From: Sedimentisphaerales bacterium
GTDB lineage: Bacteria > Planctomycetota > Phycisphaerae > Sedimentisphaerales > Anaerobacaceae
DNA: 64,000 nucleotides
Reading direction: 5' to 3'
Assembly (NCBI GenBank): GCA_963708075.1
Contig: OY970194.1
Coordinates: 5,184,001-5,248,000 of the forward strand
The notes beneath the pieces were generated by a model, which saw only the letters and a list, made by a program, of their open reading frames with translations, did no database searches and was not told where the DNA came from. The position numbers and the translations under genes were made by a program. Shown in pieces: positions 739 to 58,795 of the stretch. Position 1 is the first letter of the stretch. Each line of letters opens with the position of its first letter.

Positions 739-1067
739 GGGTGCGGTCGGCGTTCGGTGGCGGATTCGGATTCCAGCCGACACAAGAGCGCAGCCCAGTC
801 TTCTTTCGCCCCTACGGGGCTTCGAGATAGGATTGACTATCGTACCCACCGTTGAAACGGTGGGCTAGTGTCGATCGCCCCCGTGGGGCGGACGGGCCGA
901 CGCAAGAGGACTGGAGCGAAGTCCAAGCCCGGAGGGCGATAGAGAATAGCCCAGCGATTGATCGCTGGGCAACCGGGGCCGAGGACAAAAGCCAGTCCCG
1001 TAAGGGACGAAAGAGGCGCAGTCCGCACACGGCGGCTACACGCCGCCACCGAATTCCGACCACACCC
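739..1067. mobile_element. MITE family A copy 1 (329 bp) with REP-like hairpin cargo
   Basis: TIRs GGGTGCGGTCGGCGTTCGGTGGCGG / CCGCCACCGAATTCCGACCACACCC. Flanks AGGAGACT (731-738) and AGGAAACT (1068-1075). Near-identical to the reverse complement of 31042-31436 and 33563-34030. Confidence 0.85.
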
Positions 1068-26712: not shown

Positions 26713-26979
26713 TCCATCTGCGTTCATCTGCGGATGATGATCGGTAGTCGGTAGCCGGTTGGCGGTTGTCGGTTGAAACCCCTTGGTGTTTTTCTCCGTG
26801 GTCTCGGTGTCCTCCGTGGTTAAGAAAGCCTGGATTCCCGCGTTCGCGGGAATGACATTGTTGAAATCCGTGGTCATCCGCGTCAATCCGTGTCCAGGAA
26901 CAAGCGGTGTGCGAAGCACACCCTACCGGCTGTCGCCATTGCCGTGTCCTGACCCCTTATCGGCGTTCATCAGCGTTTA

Positions 26980-27873
26980 TCAGCGGTTCCGTTTTCTCGG
27001 TGTCCTCTGTGGCAATTTATTCGTCTTGCGTCTTGTCTTTGCCTTCTTACCTTTGGCCTTTTGCAGGGCGGCCGGTGTGCGGGCGAATGATGATTCGCCC
27101 CTACGCGGGTGTTGGACTCTTTTCCTGCCGGTGGATGTGCCTTTCTTATCTTCTTTCCTTCCTGCCTTCTTCCGTTCTTCCTCGCCGCCGGCGTAGACCT
27201 CCTTGCGGCGGTCGGGGGGCCATTCTTCGGGGAAGTTGAGATTGGCGAACTCGCCGAATAATTCCACCGCTTTGCGGTCGTAGGCGCGGGCGGCCTCGAT
27301 CTCATCCTTGTAATAGCCGAGCCAGATGTCCTTGCCCATGATCTTGATCTGGGCGTACCACTTGTGGCGGTCCTTCGAGTAGCCGACGCCTTTGTATTTG
27401 GATAGCGAGCCGCGCTTTTTGCGCTGGTTGCGCTGGTTCTCGTGGCGCAAACAGAGGCGCAGGTTCGGGCGGGTGTCGTCGAGCTTGTTGTGGTTGAAGT
27501 GGTCGACGATCTTGCCGGGCGGGGCCTGCAGGATCTGGCGATGCATGTAGACGATCTTTCCCTTCTCATTGCGTGCGGCGTATCCGTTCACCGAGGACCA
27601 GGTCCACCGGCTGAGCCAGTCGTAGTCGGCGGCGTCCACGTAGGCGTACAGGCCGTCGCCCAGCGGGATTCGCCGGGCGTCGCCTTCGGGCTCGGGCGGC
27701 CTGGGGCGATAGTTGCGGCAGGGGCCGCCGGAGGGTACGGGCCTCATCCGGCCGAGCGACTCCGGGTGGTTCGCACACGCCGGACGGCTCGCAAAACCCG
27801 TGACAAAGCCCTGCATCGTCTGGCATCGGTCCCAATACGCGTACACGCAATTGTGACAGTTCTCAGTCGCCAT
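26980..27873 (-). CDS. HNH endonuclease-AP2 domain protein with N-terminal Cys cluster
   Basis: CHNC...C...C; VDAADY, YMHRQI, VDHFNHNKLDDTRPNLR, SKYKGV, LGYY...EAARAYD. Confidence 0.88.
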   Translation of the reverse strand: MATENCHNCVYAYWDRCQTMQGFVTGFASRPACANHPESLGRMRPVPSGGPCRNYRPRPPEPEGDARRIPLGDGLYAYVDAADYDWLSRWTWSSVNGYAARNEKGKIVYMHRQILQAPPGKIVDHFNHNKLDDTRPNLRLCLRHENQRNQRKKRGSLSKYKGVGYSKDRHKWYAQIKIMGKDIWLGYYKDEIEAARAYDRKAVELFGEFANLNFPEEWPPDRRKEVYAGGEEERKKAGRKEDKKGTSTGRKRVQHPRRGESSFARTPAALQKAKGKKAKTRRKTNKLPQRTPRKRNR

Positions 27874-27965: not shown

Positions 27966-28194
27966 CCCAAAATCCGGCAGAAAATACTGTCACCGGAAGA
28001 ATCGGTGGGCAGAGCCCACCCTACCGGCTCCCGCCGCTGCCATGTCCCGGCTCCTTATCGGCGTTGATCGGCGTTCATCTGCGGTTTCATTGTTCTCGTG
28101 GTGAAGAGGTCCGCATGGGCTGAAGCCCATCCTACGCGCTCTATGCAGGAATGACATGTACAGGGGAGTTTTCGCGTGGTTCGCGGTTGCCCGG

Positions 28195-31041: not shown

Positions 31042-31436
31042 GGGTGTGGTCGGAATTCGGTGGCGGCGTGTAGCCACCGTGTGCGGACTGCGCCTCTTTC
31101 GTCCCTTACGGGACTGGCTTTTGTCCTCGGCCCCGGTTCCCCAGCGATCAATCGCTGGGCTATTCTCTGTCGCCCTGCGGGCTTGGACTGCGTCATGGCT
31201 GAGCTTCGTGATACTGCCAAATTGAAGGCTATCCTCTATTGCCCTTCGGGCTTGGACTTCGCTTCAGTCCTCTTGCGTCGGCCCGTCCGCCCCACGGGGG
31301 CGATCGACACTAGCCCACCGTTTCAACGGTGGGTACGATAGTCAATCCTATCTCAAAGCCCCGTAGGGGCGAAAGAAGACTGGGCTGCGCTCTTGTGTCG
31401 GCTGGAATCCGAATCCGCCACCGAATGCCGACCGCA
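31042..31436. mobile_element. MITE family A copy 2 (2 internal repeats, 1 spacer)
   Basis: Same TIRs; flanked by duplicated GGCACTCCGGG (31031-31041 / 31437-31447). Confidence 0.85.
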
Positions 31437-31544
31437 GGCACTCCGGGGGTATTCATTTTCGTCTATTGGCTCTCGTTGTCGGCCGATAGTATATGTAGTT
31501 GGCGTGCACAGAGATACGAAGACGTAGGAAGTTTGAGGGCCGGT

Positions 31545-33055: not shown

Positions 33056-33088
33056 AAACTCAATCCACTCTCGCACGACTTCGTTCAT
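33056..33088 (-). pseudogene. N-terminal stub of a HEPN gene
   Basis: MNEVVREWIE overlaps the end of the MNT gene and is cut by the REP doublet. Confidence 0.55.
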
Positions 33089-33389
33089 AGAGTACCCGTC
33101 CCTGGTCCAGTGCCTCTCGAATCAGCGGGTCGCCCTGGGCGTACCGCCGTTGCGTGTCGTCCGGGCGCCGAGCCAGCACATCCACGGCAAAGGGGGGATT
33201 CACGCGATTGGTAATCTCAAGCGATTTCCAGAATGACTTACCCTCAAACGGCAGGATCACCAGCAGATCGACATCCGAGTCACTCGTGGCCGTACCCCGG
33301 GCATACGATCCAAAGAGCACCACGCACTCCGGGTCGTACGCCTCGGCGATGCGGTCCACCACGGCCTGAATGTCGGTCATCGCTACCAT
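33060..33389 (-). CDS. Minimal nucleotidyltransferase (MNT) antitoxin
   Basis: VVLFGSYARG...SDVDLLV...VDVL...GRVLYE. Confidence 0.9.
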   Translation of the reverse strand: MVAMTDIQAVVDRIAEAYDPECVVLFGSYARGTATSDSDVDLLVILPFEGKSFWKSLEITNRVNPPFAVDVLARRPDDTQRRYAQGDPLIREALDQGRVLYERSRARVD

Positions 33390-33562
33390 AAAACGTCCTT
33401 CAGCATTCCGATGCCTCTCTCATACACTATCGGATTTCCTGACGTATGGCAAGCAAAGAGCGGTGGCGAGAGGAACTTGGATTCCCACCGTTGCGGGAAT
33501 GACATTCTCGGAATCCGTGTTCATCCGTGTGAATCCGCGTCGGACGAACGGGCGGGTCTGCG

Positions 33563-34030
33563 GGGTGTGGTCGGAATTCGGTGGCGGCGTGTAGCCACCG
33601 TGTGCGGACTGCGCCTCTTTCGTCCCTTACGGGACTGGCTTTTGTCCTCGGCCCCGGTTCCCCAGCGATCAATCGCTGGGCTATTCTCTATCGCCCTGCG
33701 GGCTTGGACTGCACCCGGACCGATCGATCACTATCCCGCAGGTGTTGCAGCTATTCTCTGTCGCCCTGCGGGCTTGGACTGCGTCATGGCTGAGCTTCGT
33801 GATACTGCCAAATTGAAGGCTATCCTCTATTGCCCTTCGGGCTTGGACTTCGCTTCAGTCCTCTTGCGTCGGCCCGTCCGCCCCACGGGGGCGATCGACA
33901 CTAGCCCACCGTTTCAACGGTGGGTACGATAGCCAATCCTATCTCAAAGCCCCGTAGGGGCGAAAGAAGACTGGGCTGCGCTCTTGTGTCGGGTGCAAAC
34001 CGAATCCGCCACCGAATGCCGACCGCATCC
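33563..34030. mobile_element. MITE family A copy 3 (3 internal repeats, 2 spacers)
   Basis: Same TIRs and hairpins; no TSD visible. Confidence 0.85.
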
Positions 34031-34233
34031 GCTTCCGCCGCGGGCGTTGGAAATGGGGGTGACAGGGTGGGGGGGAGTTGGTATAATGGTCCGGCGCCGG
34101 CTGGGGTCACGGACGGGCCCGGCCGGCCGTGAATCGGGGATTGTCAGGGACCGGGCTGGATTCGTGACATATCCAAGGTATTCCGCTGTCAAGAGTTGCT
34201 CCCATCGCAAGGATCGTAAGGAAAGGACAGGCT

Positions 34234-37200
34234 ATGAGTGCCCAGTGCGCAAATATGAAGGCCGGGCGACGATGGTCGGGTCTGGTGCCCGGGATCGCGT
34301 TGGTTGTCACGGTGTTTCTGGCCGGCGCCGGCCGGGCGCAGACACCGCCGGCGGAGAGCAAGGCCGTCAAGCTCGTCTCCATCAAGCCGACGGTCCTGTT
34401 CACCGCGAGCGGGCAGGAGCTCCGGCAGCTCATGGACGTGGTCATTGAGAATCCGGGAGCGGCGGTGCAGGCGAATCTGGATGTGCGGATCGGATCGTTC
34501 AGTCAGTCCGTATCGATAGAAACGCTTGGGCCGGGCAAATCGACGTTCCACGTGTCCGTGCCGGACATCCGCCAGCCGATGCCGGCGCAGTTCGTGCTCA
34601 AGGTGGACAGCAAGCCCGTGGACACGCGGGAGATGGAATGGCAGCCGCGGAAGCACTGGACGATTTACCTCGTGCCGATCACGCATCACGATCTGGGGTA
34701 CACGGACACGATCGAGAACGTGATGAATCGCTACGCTGGCTTCTATGACGACGTGCTTCGCTTCTGCGACCAGACGAGCGACTTTCCCGAGGAGGCGAAG
34801 TATCGATATACAATCGAAGGGGCCTGGTCGCTGCAGCACTTCATCGCGACCCGGCCAAAGGAGGCTGTGGATAAGCTGGGCGGGTATGTCAAGCAAGGCA
34901 GGATCGAGGTCGGGGCGCTGTTCGGCAACGAGATCGACAGCCTCTGCGGACACGAGGAGCTGATCCGCCTGATGTACCCGTCGTTTCGCTTCAAGCGTCA
35001 GTACGGCGGCGAGATCGACGTCGGCTCGATCACGGATGTGCCGGGCCTGAGCTGGGGCCTGCCGACGGTGCTGGCGGGGGCGGGGGTGAGGTACTTCTTC
35101 GCCGGGCTGCCGACGTACTTCGAGTGGGGCCGCAACGATATTCACACGTTCTGGGACGAGGCGGCGGTCCTGCGTCACGGCCGGCCCGACGCGTTCAAGT
35201 GGCAGGGGCCCGACGGGCAGACCGTGCTCGTTTACTACCAGAGCAGCTACGGGTTCTTCAAGCGAGTCATCGGCCCGGACACGTATGAGGAGGTCATGGA
35301 GGCGCTGCCGGGCATGCTCGACGAAATGGATGCACAGGGCTCGCCCTTCGACGTGATGCGCTACATCCACAACGGCGTCGATAATTACCCGCCGGAGATA
35401 AGGATCAGCACCGTGGTCCGGCAGTGGAACGAGAAATGGGCGTATCCGAAGCTCGTCGTCGCCACCAATTCGATGTTCTTCAGCGCCCTGGAGAAGCAGT
35501 GCGGGGACGTGCGGACGTTCCGGGGCGATCTGCCGCATACGGATTATGTCGTCGGAGCCATCTCGACGGCCAAGGAGACCACCGTCAATCGGTTGACGCA
35601 TGACAAACTGCTCTCGGCGGAGAAGGCCGCGACCATCGCATCGCTGACCAGCGACTACGCCTATCCGGCCGACAAGATCGCCCAGGCCTACGACAATATG
35701 CTCCTCTATGACGAGCACACGTGGGGCAAGGACTACCCGGCGGGCGAGATTCAGGACTGGGGCTGGAACGAGAAAAGCCACTTCGCGTACAAGGCCGCAG
35801 GATTGACCCAGGGCGTGCTGGCCGAGAGCATCGAAAAGATCGCCGGCAAGGTCCGGCTCGAACAGCCGCAACGACACGTCATCGTTTTCAACCCGCTCGC
35901 CTTCGACCGGACAGACGTCGTCCGCGTGACACGCTTCCCGCAGGACAAGCCCTTTGATCTCATCGATAACGAGACCGGCGCGAAAGTCGCGTACCAGATT
36001 GTCGAGATAGACAGCCCGCTGGCCGCCTTGCCGTATGCCCCGCAGCGATGGGCGCGCGGGCAATTCGAAAAGCATGAGCTGTACGATCTCGTCTTCGTCG
36101 CCGCGAACGTGCCGTCGATGGGGTACAAGACGTATCGGCTCGTGCCGCGCGAGGATAAGCCGGCCGGCGAGAGCGGGACAAAGGCGGCGCAGAACACTCT
36201 GGAGAACCGCTTCTTCAAAGTCACGCTCGACGCGAAGACCGGCGCGATCGCCAGCCTCTATGACAAGGACCTGTCGGCCGAGCTGGTCGATGCACAGGCC
36301 CCGGACAAGCTGAACCAGTTCGTGGCCAAGTGGGTCCAGACAGGAAAGCAGGAGGGCCCGTCGGCAGCGACGATTCGCGTTGGGCAGAACGGCCCCGTAT
36401 GCGCCAGCCTGATCTCGCAGAGTTTCGGCGCCGGGTGCCCGCAGATCGTCCAGGAGGTCGTGCTCTATGAGGGCATCAAGCGGATCGATCTGTTCAACCG
36501 GGTCCTGAAGGATTCGACGCCGCAGTTGGAGGTCTATTTCGCGTTCCCGTTCAAGGTGGACGAGCCGAAGTTCCGCTTCGAGGGCACCAACTCGGTGATT
36601 GAGCCATTCAAGGACCAGTTCCCCGGCTCCAATACGAACTACTACACCGTGCAACATTGGGCGAGCGTGTCGAACCCGAGCGTCGGGATCACGCTGTCGC
36701 CCGTGGAGTCACACCTGCTGGAGTTCGGCGGCCTGTGGCCCTGCTATGTCTCGCAGGCCCATCACGGGGCGACGCCCGCGGGCTTCGGCCAGCCGTTCGT
36801 CAAGCCGGAGCAAATGACGAAGGGCCACATATACGCCTTCGTCCTCGACAGCAACTTCCGCACGAATTTCCAGCCCGTCCAGCAGGCGGACATCTTGTTC
36901 CGCTACTCGCTGACGAGCAACAAGGGGCCGCAGGCAAACAGCGACAACCGCAATTTCGGCTGGTCCGTTCACAACCCGCTCATGGGCGTGGTCGCCAACG
37001 GCGGCAGGACCGGGCCATTCGAGGACCGGATGAGCTTCTGCCGGCTGGATCAGGCCAATGTGTTGCTCGTGACGATGAAACGGGCGGAAGATGGGCAGGG
37101 CGTCATCGTCCGCCTGATCGAGACCGACGGCAAGCAGGGGACTGTAACGCTGACGCTGCCGGTGCTGGCCGTCGGCAAGGCCTGGCAGACCAACGTTGTG

Positions 37201-37296
37201 GAAGAGAACCAGGCGGAGTTGCAATCCACGGATCACAGCGTCACCGTGCCCGTCCGGCCCTTCGGCATCAGCACGGTCCGCGTGCAGTTGCGTTGA
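34234..37296 (+). CDS. Secreted GH38-family glycoside hydrolase (alpha-mannosidase-like)
   Basis: Signal peptide; THHDLGY, ITDVPG, DNYPP, YDEHTWG, C-terminal KRAEDG..VIVRL. Confidence 0.88.
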   Translation: MSAQCANMKAGRRWSGLVPGIALVVTVFLAGAGRAQTPPAESKAVKLVSIKPTVLFTASGQELRQLMDVVIENPGAAVQANLDVRIGSFSQSVSIETLGPGKSTFHVSVPDIRQPMPAQFVLKVDSKPVDTREMEWQPRKHWTIYLVPITHHDLGYTDTIENVMNRYAGFYDDVLRFCDQTSDFPEEAKYRYTIEGAWSLQHFIATRPKEAVDKLGGYVKQGRIEVGALFGNEIDSLCGHEELIRLMYPSFRFKRQYGGEIDVGSITDVPGLSWGLPTVLAGAGVRYFFAGLPTYFEWGRNDIHTFWDEAAVLRHGRPDAFKWQGPDGQTVLVYYQSSYGFFKRVIGPDTYEEVMEALPGMLDEMDAQGSPFDVMRYIHNGVDNYPPEIRISTVVRQWNEKWAYPKLVVATNSMFFSALEKQCGDVRTFRGDLPHTDYVVGAISTAKETTVNRLTHDKLLSAEKAATIASLTSDYAYPADKIAQAYDNMLLYDEHTWGKDYPAGEIQDWGWNEKSHFAYKAAGLTQGVLAESIEKIAGKVRLEQPQRHVIVFNPLAFDRTDVVRVTRFPQDKPFDLIDNETGAKVAYQIVEIDSPLAALPYAPQRWARGQFEKHELYDLVFVAANVPSMGYKTYRLVPREDKPAGESGTKAAQNTLENRFFKVTLDAKTGAIASLYDKDLSAELVDAQAPDKLNQFVAKWVQTGKQEGPSAATIRVGQNGPVCASLISQSFGAGCPQIVQEVVLYEGIKRIDLFNRVLKDSTPQLEVYFAFPFKVDEPKFRFEGTNSVIEPFKDQFPGSNTNYYTVQHWASVSNPSVGITLSPVESHLLEFGGLWPCYVSQAHHGATPAGFGQPFVKPEQMTKGHIYAFVLDSNFRTNFQPVQQADILFRYSLTSNKGPQANSDNRNFGWSVHNPLMGVVANGGRTGPFEDRMSFCRLDQANVLLVTMKRAEDGQGVIVRLIETDGKQGTVTLTLPVLAVGKAWQTNVVEENQAELQSTDHSVTVPVRPFGISTVRVQLR

Positions 37297-37516
37297 TGTG
37301 ACGTCTATGAGGGTGTTGCTGACAACCAGTGAAGCCATCGGCAAGCTGCCGCTTGCCGCTGCCACCCGGCACGGGAATGACAAAAAGGGTACCCGGGCCG
37401 GAACAAGGGCCCAGCCCGGACTCTGTCCCCCTGCGCAAGCAGGGGTCCACGAAGCTTCGGTACTCAGGTGGATTCCTGCTTTCGCAGGAATGACAAAGAT
37501 CGACGTTATGTGTGCG

Positions 37517-37599
37517 CCGGGTGCCATGTCCACGCTAGCGTGGACATGCCTCATGTGTACAGGGACACATGCTTACGCACGCGTAAGCATGGCACCCGG
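37517..37599. repeat. REP-like double hairpin family B (also 52862-52942, 58541-58627)
   Basis: GGGTGCCATG-hairpin...hairpin-CATGGCACCC, three copies. Confidence 0.85.
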
Positions 37600-48393: not shown

Positions 48394-48574
48394 GGGTGCG
48401 GTCGGCATTCGGTGGCGGATTCGGGGCTCCGCGTAGGACGAGCGTCCTCGCTCGTCCTCTTTCGGCTGTGGCCTTGTACAGTATCCAGTCCGTTGCAAGG
48501 GCCCAGACTGGTCGTGCGGGGACGCACGACCTACGAAGAGGCTCGCCGACTGCCACCGTATTCCGACCACACCC
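48394..48574. mobile_element. MITE family A copy 4 (181 bp) with different REP cargo
   Basis: Same TIRs; perfect 9-bp TSD TGCCGGTGG (48385-48393 / 48575-48583); internal GTAGG...CCTAC hairpin pair. Confidence 0.88.
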
Positions 48575-52036: not shown

Positions 52037-53241
52037 GGCAGTCTCCTCATTACGATTGATTAAGGATTATTGATGAAGGATGATTGTCACCCAGTCACAC
52101 CTTCGGTTGCCGTCGTCGCCACAGTAGCTCGCGACATCCTCGCGGGTCGCCGCGCGTGACTCACGCACAAGGTTGGAAGTCCAATTCGTCACGGCCAAGA
52201 TTCTACCGCCGGGTCCCCGCCGCGCCCACCACAAAGGAATCGCCAGGCCGGCATAAACCTGTCACCCGGAGTCAGGTAGGAGATCAGCAGCACCGGGTGG
52301 CACCGCCAAACTCGTTGAGAACGTCCCATGTTCTTGAGATTGCTCCGTTGGAGCCTGGGGATGCCCGCTCAGCGACGGATCCATTCCGCCGCTGAGCGGC
52401 GGGAGTTTGCCGCTTTTTGGCCTCCAGCATGATTCCGGCTACTGCCCCATTCAGGCGATTGCTCACAGATAGTGCGTACGACCAACCATGCCGGCGGCTC
52501 TAAAGCGATAAACTCCCTGCCGGCGGCCGCCGGCAGGTTCCCACAGGTCCCCAAGCAGATCCTGTGACTGGGGGCGAACAGGCTTGGCGCAGAGACTCAA
52601 GGATTTGGGACGATGCCAACTCGTTTGACGGTGCTCGTTCGACTGAGCCTGACCATTCGAAGCCCCACGGGCAAACGAGTTGGGTTCGTCCCAAGTTGTT
52701 GAGTTTTGGGTGGCAGCGTCAAGCGCAGCTTGCACAGGCTCGATCTCAAGGATTTGGGACGAACCCAACGAGTTTACCCGTGCTACCCAAGCCTGTGCCT
52801 TTGCAAGCCAATCGCGCTCGGCTATTGGAACTCCATGTCTGTGGACTCCGGGTGGCGGCGGCCGGGTGCCATGTCTACGCTTGCGTAGACATGGTCCATT
52901 CGATGGGCAAGACATGCTTACGCAAGCGTAAGCATGGCACCCAAGAATATCTGGAGAGAGCGGCATGGGCTGAAGCCCATCCTGCATGATTCGGGCCGGG
53001 GCACAGGTGAGGAACTCCTCTGTGGCAAGTCCGGTAAGAATCGTTGCTGTGAATCTGGGCAGGGGTGAATTAGCTGCGGTGAACAGGAGTTTTGCGTTGA
53101 CAGTAATAGGAGAAGAGAAGAGGATACTGTAGGCAGGCAGACACACGGGGATCATCAATTTCAATGATTGCAGAGGTGTCCGTCGCTCAATTAGGATGGA
53201 GGCCGGCGGGCATAGTGTTGGAAGCGGTGGTAAGGAGAGAA

Positions 53242-58361: not shown

Positions 58362-58795
58362 GCGAATTCCCCAACTAATAGCACCATCCGTAAGAATCTA
58401 CGTGTGCTCTGCTCCCGGGATGGCGAGGAAAAGGATTCATTTGCCCTACGCCCGCACCGCCTGCACGAACAGGCCGATGCCAACAGCAGATCGTAGAGAC
58501 GCAACATCTTGCGTCTCTACAGGGTCCGGGTCTGATGACTGGCCGGGTGGCATGTCTACGCTTGCGTAGACATGGTTGACTCGATGGACAAGACATGCTT
58601 ACGCGAGCGTAAGCATGGCACCCGGCCGATCGTGAAGGGGCGATTCTCTCAGCGGAGGCATAGGCAAAATGATGATATCTCAACTCCGATTCCTGCTTGC
58701 CCAGACAGGGACCCAGGCTTATGCTGCGGATGATGCGGCCGGATCGGCAGGTGGCTTCCGCCGGGACGGAGCGTTCGACTGGCAAATGGACGATC

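Follow-up and report, generated by a model that had tools for sequence, protein, structure and literature searches.

Frozen CRISPR-sized DNA captures in a REP-like unit that a MITE has multiplied in a Sedimentisphaerales bacterium

The repeat-spacer series analyzed here, in a window of 64,000 nucleotides (the whole stretch of DNA considered) from a Sedimentisphaerales bacterium, is a real and rare arrangement: it consists of frozen captures of DNA that lie within a REP-like unit and were multiplied by a MITE. We directly observed the anatomy of the element, the fixed geometry of the inserts, the host origin of one spacer, the restriction to three spacer kinds and their mixed orders. As to how these captures arose, we give about an even chance to fossil off-target full-site Cas1-Cas2 integrations into the MITE-borne REP-like unit, which would then have spread by transposition and cassette recombination. 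The product resembles CRISPR acquisition but does not belong among CRISPR arrays.

The array-bearing element has the hallmarks of a MITE, namely terminal inverted repeats (TIRs), target duplication, no coding capacity and many copies. It measures 329, 398-399 or 468 bp, has TIRs of ~25 bp and occupies ~55 places in the chromosome (7.5 Mb in one contig, 92.8% complete); exact target duplications of 7-9 bp accompanied 36 of the 69 TIR pairs, a set that includes 181-bp sister elements. Three copies lie in the window. Copy 1 (739..1067, minus strand, 329 bp) has one repeat at 915-950 and no spacer. Copy 2 (31042..31439, plus strand, 398 bp) has the array B, with repeats at 31159-31194 and 31228-31263 around spacer B at 31195-31227. 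Copy 3 (33563..34030, plus strand, 468 bp), delimited by a TIR pair at genome 5217563-5218030 and by its BLAST family, has the array A-B between a left TIR at 33563..33587 (plus) and a right TIR at 34006..34030 (minus). It is located between a minimal nucleotidyltransferase gene (33060-33389, minus) and a GH38 glycosidase gene (34234-37296, plus), and a strong sigma-70-like site (11/12) at 34059-34087 (plus), past the right TIR, points away from the array. The window also contains other dispersed palindromic repeat families, at 37515-37597, 52860-52942 and 58541-58623, at 26831-26894 and 33478-33541, and at 26897-26993 and 27995-28091.

No autonomous partner with the ends of the MITE was found in the genome, where the long TIR-bounded elements were only MITEs interrupted by nested IS elements. 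We rejected as parent the 1.7-kb TIR-bounded element at genome 46637-48344, an element nested in a 181-bp sister MITE that we take from its protein to be IS4-like, as well as the 1.5-kb copies, which are MITEs interrupted by an IS630-like element. IS630-like elements (genome 5257234-5258381 and 6574466-6575613) have inserted next to the second hairpin at an identical position in at least two MITE copies, and a further one interrupts a third copy there, near genome 3501610. A 183-bp sister MITE is inserted in the 3' end of the repeat in two copies (genome 7512161-7512343 and 6804351-6804533), a junction also present in one sequencing run (X1). The same TIRs enclose other palindromic interiors, in the 181-183-bp sister MITEs of this genome (window 48394-48574) and, around another palindrome family, in two other genomes (G074/G188; L036, L040, L041 and L044). 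Judging from these sequences, one TIR shell may carry several REP-like cargos.

The original prediction had placed a 31-nt repeat at 920-950 (minus), 31159-31189, 31228-31258, 33680-33710, 33750-33780 and 33819-33849, and we recovered it at all six; the 31-nt pattern matched the window six times, with 0-3 mismatches, and 100 shuffles gave no match. The 38-nt spacer common to copies 2 and 3, the extra 39-nt spacer and the hairpin at 33661-33680 were likewise as described. The lengths, however, had to be corrected. Since the five bases past the 31-mer recur in single-repeat copies, they are part of the duplication, and the repeat is thus 36 nt long (37 with a shared G) and not 31; spacers A, B and a third one, C, then measure 34, 33 and 34 nt. 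A de novo array finder called 37-nt repeats with 32-33-nt spacers, and at the junctions seen in sequencing reads the joint steps back by 36, both within one base of this definition. Copy 3 therefore reads, on the plus strand, repeat 1 (33680..33715), spacer A (33716..33749, 34 nt, a fragment of the serS 3' end with 29/34 identities in this copy), repeat 2 (33750..33785), spacer B (33786..33818, 33 nt, no source found) and a distal repeat 3 made of recombinant alleles (33819..33854). Five nucleotides of spacer C are shared with the hairpin arm, which makes its boundary ambiguous.

Two Acido-Lenti-1 units (RF01687, gathering score 37) in inverted orientation make up the interior of the MITE. The first (33661..33704, plus), formed by the hairpin at 33661-33680 and the small palindrome of repeat 1, scored 41.3 bits and passes the covariance model, whereas the second, inverted and without spacers (33879..33924, minus), fell just below the threshold with 36.4 bits. 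What we call the "repeat" corresponds to the 3' half of that first unit, extended by 11 nt. Genome-wide, 150 candidates were scored against RF01687 and 113 of them matched at E<=0.001. Such inverted palindromic pairs in many intergenic copies are what is expected of REPtron or REP-BIME systems, and the earlier proposal of a REP link proved right, in that half of an Acido-Lenti-1 unit serves as repeat and such units flank a Y1 transposase elsewhere. In another genome (locus L064, 3001-3823), three Acido-Lenti-1 units surround a gene for a 147-aa Y1_Tnp with the motif Y---Q--HH. According to excerpts of PMC6006769, this is the motif of Y1 subclass 1.2, members of which are generally without typical end structures. 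An ORF similar to this Y1_Tnp was found at a second locus, with no Rfam match at gathering level. The cognate Y1 gene flanked by REP units that defines a REPtron is thus present at L064 and missing in our genome. These data suggest that the Acido-Lenti-1 "sRNA" is the REP-like end of a subclass-1.2 Y1 transposase, a link that is firm in one locus only, and in our genome the unit acts as a REP-like DNA repeat and is not evidently an sRNA.

Compared to REP/BIME sequences mobilized by TnpA-REP, as described in portions of PMC3333891, PMC8266576 and PMC6006769, the element shares the inverted palindromic pair, the Y1 partner in other genomes, tandem amplification and variable intervening DNA. It differs in that it is not of the GTAG type and its partner has the subclass-1.2 motif, in that the intervening DNA replaces the hairpin, has a fixed length and is once a host gene fragment, and in that the unit is enclosed in TIRs with target duplications. 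The GTAG at the hairpin foot and the C|T cleavage junctions, REP features in the same parts of PMC3333891, were not seen by sequence inspection. With the Acido-Lenti-1 RNA family the hairpin and repeat 1 agree above the gathering cut-off, whereas here the sequence acts as a DNA repeat in a mobile element whose downstream repeats have no hairpin.

A scan with the 31-mer (up to 6 mismatches) detected 95 repeat copies in the genome which, when copies at most 80 nt apart were grouped, formed 60 sites: 31 single repeats (including about six diverged units, mostly outside MITEs), 11 A, 11 B, 4 AB, 1 BA, 1 AA' and 1 C. The 35 spacers correspond to 22 distinct sequences of just three kinds, A (18), B (16) and C (1), and they measure either 34 nt (17 A and 1 C) or 33 nt (16 B and 1 A). 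Direct repeats of 23-50 nt separated by unrelated spacers of regular length, as in CRISPR arrays, are indeed present (36-nt repeats, 18 spacers of 34 nt and 17 of 33 nt). By contrast, the many unique spacers with strain diversity expected of such arrays are replaced by three kinds among 35, and the polarized addition at a leader end is contradicted by the coexistence of AB (4), BA (1) and AA' (1) and by spacer states scattered on trees. In trees of the left and right arms of the element, limited to 46 of 60 sites because the arms of the other 14 were incomplete, the states 0, A, B and AB were intermixed, with weak support. A growing array with polarized acquisition is thus not supported, and other samples showed the same A and B; the set of three CRISPR-sized captures is frozen.

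Spacer subtypes were linked to the 3' half of the preceding repeat and to the 5' half of the following one (for example 9/12 and 4/6), as expected if cassettes are exchanged by crossing-over inside the repeat. Such exchange also accounts for the "degenerate" distal repeat, which had been compared to that of CRISPR arrays but reflects allele linkage rather than trailer decay: in copy 3, its 5' half is the allele tied to one spacer-B subtype (4/6 such cassettes), and at its 3' end it has the allele most frequent among single copies (12/28 singles and 17/28 distal repeats). Recombination between repeats, the alternative that had been put forward to spacer acquisition, accounts for how long the arrays are and in which order their spacers stand, but not for where the spacers came from. 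The copies hold more than the two spacers seen in the window, the third, C, being unrelated to them, and the spacers are not pieces of other repeat families, A being a serS fragment; they are real captures of non-repeat DNA of near-fixed length.

Comparison of the spacers with genome, phage and plasmid sets gave a match for A, in the host serS, and no significant match for B and C. Spacer A derives from the 3' end of this gene (ORF at genome 964513-965790, TIGR00414; BLAST E about 1e-7), its end lying 43 nt from the end of the stop codon. The 17 full-length A copies differ from serS at 1-6 of 34 positions (1 in the nearest copy, 5 in that of the window), whereas the serS genes of 22 congeners show 5-10 mismatches to the nearest A copy and one A variant, allowing up to 3 mismatches, matched none of 23 congeners. 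This closer match to the host gene indicates that the capture happened in this lineage. For B and C, the best ungapped matches in their own genome (25-26 of 38-39) equalled those of shuffles, exact patterns found nothing in IMG/VR, searches of C against phages and of B against plasmids returned chance matches only, and neither occurred in 23 congeners at up to 3 mismatches.

Elsewhere, the repeat gave one single-repeat match and no further array in 60 relatives, weak partial matches in 3 of 150 family genomes, two chance matches in metagenome contigs and none in viral contigs. Inserts were present at the repeat junction in 5 of 8 sequencing runs (8 studies) and were only A or B variants among the inserts listed, from run contigs that drop rare variants. 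A GTDB-wide pattern for double units retrieved 15 loci, mostly with the unit duplicated together with its own flank or hairpin, and two looser patterns matched 2/401 and 3/401 genomes without any new insert. Non-native inserts were nevertheless found in REP copies of one Solibacter genome (G196; 30 loci examined, for 56 REP matches), three in number and of 34, 27 and 35-36 nt (L123, L141 and L145). All three join the unit at a single point in the hairpin loop and come with duplications of 36 nt or more; no source was found for them outside the arrays in this fragmented genome, which has two Cas1 genes and tandems of other periods (36, 78-79, 107 and 216). Relative to the REP, the Solibacter duplication is shifted by 10 nt from the register observed here and by eye does not resemble a repeat end. 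In four other genomes with tandem units, one of them (G198) with Cas1, only plain tandems occurred in the loci seen.

That the window has no cas genes, as first stated, holds, and the absence extends further: a Cas1 profile search of the genome (one contig, 92.8% complete) gave no match, tblastn with the cas ORFs of congeners left no trace at E<=1e-6, relics of 11 congener CRISPR repeats were not detected at up to 6 mismatches, and the de novo finder reported no canonical CRISPR array. The acquisition had also been called cas-independent. This agrees with the present lack of Cas1 but is unproven, a cognate Y1 transposase being equally absent and Cas1 being present in 17/23 congeners. In two congener arrays with 33-nt repeats, 44/46 and 37/40 spacers measure 33-35 nt, with a mode of 34; arrays with 35- and 37-nt repeats also occur, and those with 36-nt repeats have spacers of 29-32 nt, so that none of the congener systems seen pairs a 36-nt repeat with 33-34-nt spacers. 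We presume the CRISPR subtype names of these arrays from repeat shape. In one congener (G006, L181:8411-13058), a 918-aa Cas6-RT-Cas1 fusion is encoded beside an array with 35-nt repeats.

The CRISPR repeats of congeners are partly like our repeat at the 3' end. In a comparison designed post hoc, after the likeness was seen, the last 16 nt of one allele agreed with the 3' end of congener 33/35-nt repeats at 11/16 positions (shuffle p about 0.008) and those of the majority allele at 10/16 (p about 0.05), and the likeness stops exactly at the repeat-spacer junction. One 10-nt end motif retrieved no closer CRISPR repeat family in 201 genomes. Canonical arrays of congeners (33-37-nt repeats) resemble our series in the 36-nt repeat, the 33-34-nt spacers, the internal palindrome and this partial 3' likeness; unlike them, it has at most two spacers per array, three kinds genome-wide and no polarity, lacks a leader and cas genes, and is dispersed on a MITE.

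Lengths of 34, 33 and 34 nt in three independent inserts, all sharing their left junction, imply a ruler; the chance of three lengths within 1 nt was 0.001-0.015 under three chosen uniform ranges. In the Cas1-Cas2 reading, an ancestral Cas1-Cas2 would have attacked the unit just 3' of the hairpin at two sites 36 bp apart, and this paired attack would have produced both the duplication and the protein-measured insert in one step. About three such integrations may have occurred. Crossing-over within the repeat would then have moved cassettes (half-repeat, spacer and half-repeat) between copies, generating the states 0, A, B, AB, BA and AA', and the cas locus would have been lost later, the self-matching serS spacer being harmless without it. 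Full-site integration at repeat-like non-CRISPR sites one repeat length apart has been obtained in vitro, according to portions of PMC6698737, and neo-CRISPR arrays in E. coli are reported second-hand in parts of 10.1101/148544 and PMC7054753. As far as such accounts of Nivala et al. (2018) go, neo-CRISPR arrays share with our case a repeat-length duplication and a spacer-length insert at a repeat-like non-CRISPR site, with a host-derived spacer possible. In contrast, our case is natural and old instead of induced, no cas genes remain, so that the enzyme must be deduced, and the target is a REP-like unit in a MITE, multiplied to 29 sites.

Other observations bear on Cas1-Cas2 integration in both directions. 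The insert length fits the congener mode of 34, and the 36-nt duplication falls between their 35 and 37; no cognate Y1 was found here, and Solibacter G196, with Cas1, has inserts where three Cas1-less genomes have plain tandems. Conversely, our genome has no Cas1, cas trace, relic or array, no congener system has exactly the 36/33-34 geometry, and no TTC stands 5' of the serS protospacer in either orientation (n=1), TTC being the type I-C PAM. The 10-nt shift and the 27-nt insert of Solibacter, the plain tandem of G198 despite its Cas1, the ambiguous boundary of spacer C and the nature of the target, a REP, which is the natural substrate of another recombinase, also count against it.

That other recombinase provides the main alternative, which we consider possible though unlikely: the REP's own Y1 (HUH) transposase would have captured the fragments without Cas, its single-strand cleavage and transfer reinserting the unit together with a fragment by the hairpin. 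The identity of the repeat with half an Acido-Lenti-1 unit and the three units flanking Y1_Tnp at L064 point in this direction, as do the position of the inserts, which in both phyla lie on one and the same side of the unit, the one precise hairpin-loop junction in 3/3 Solibacter cases, and the 69-70-nt period, which equals the distance at which palindromes natively follow each other in the element (about 71 nt). Recombination of BIME linkers by E. coli TnpA-REP in vitro (excerpts of PMC3333891) agrees with it. The same excerpts, however, describe cleavage at C|T at a variable distance, whereas inspection of the four junctions that spacer A defines revealed no C|T common to them. The partner is moreover missing, since a cognate subclass-1.2 query found no match in the genome, whose 13 Y1 loci have no Acido-Lenti-1 unit within 2.5 kb, and the genus offers no close one: matches of only 25-33% identity occurred in 8/23 congeners, and none of 13 loci scanned had a gathering-level unit. 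Between the two organisms the register is offset by 10 nt, and most tandem units elsewhere are plain duplications. To our knowledge, Y1 insertion produces no target duplication, which also argues against it. Still less probable in our view is the stronger claim that Acido-Lenti-1 REP and a short subclass-1.2 Y1 form a Cas1-independent acquisition machine duplicating 36 bp and inserting host or foreign pieces of ~34 nt; if true, repeat-spacer arrays could arise by a second route unrelated to the first, taken independently here and in Solibacter. The Solibacter case fits Cas1, with different systems giving different registers, but also keeps a Y1 origin alive.

A generic repair accident, by template switching or microhomology repair at a hairpin-rich fragile site, with similar lengths arising by chance or from the unit period, seems improbable. 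The REP family does readily duplicate in tandem, with periods from 36 to 107 nt, the 5 nt of spacer C in common with the hairpin arm would suit it, and only three events are involved. However, the three inserts agree within 1 nt with the same left junction in all, and at the right junction of spacer A microhomology amounts to at most 1 nt. We regard as very improbable a functional or decayed guide array, that is, a real mini-CRISPR taken up by the MITE. The place of spacer A near the serS stop recalls the homing guides of RNA-guided transposons, and this essential gene with its 3'-end target, the CRISPR-like geometry and the persistence of A and B in 29 sites and in other samples could be read in that sense. 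Against it, no effector or cas genes were found, the copies drift, the repeat is single in 31/60 sites, no sigma-70-like promoter lies directly upstream on the array strand, and by eye the DNA following serS, in the host and 22 congeners, showed no inserted end in common over its first ~110 nt. The least probable explanation is a pure deletion series from one ancestral multi-spacer array, which would suit AB as the commonest two-spacer order (4/6) and the few spacer kinds but is contradicted as sole explanation by BA and AA', impossible by deletion alone, and leaves unexplained both the origin of the spacers and the occurrence of C only by itself.

The arrays are probably inert today: no effector was found, the mean pairwise difference reaches 11.6% among A copies and 8.5% among B copies, as expected for drift, and nothing stands out in the fold of the repeat (z -1.1 and -0.3). 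In the literature searched, with most subscription papers outside it, we found no description of fixed-length captures in REP or Acido-Lenti-1 units. If the Cas1-Cas2 reading is true, the arrays would preserve, as a natural fossil, the de novo birth of a CRISPR array at a REP-like repeat, which a MITE then multiplied. Orphan arrays and new repeat families would thereby have a concrete route of origin, one documented so far mainly in vitro and in induced E. coli. If Y1 was responsible, they would reveal a new spacer-capture chemistry. In either case, the data tie the Rfam family Acido-Lenti-1, described as of unknown function, to REP-like DNA flanking a subclass-1.2 Y1 transposase.
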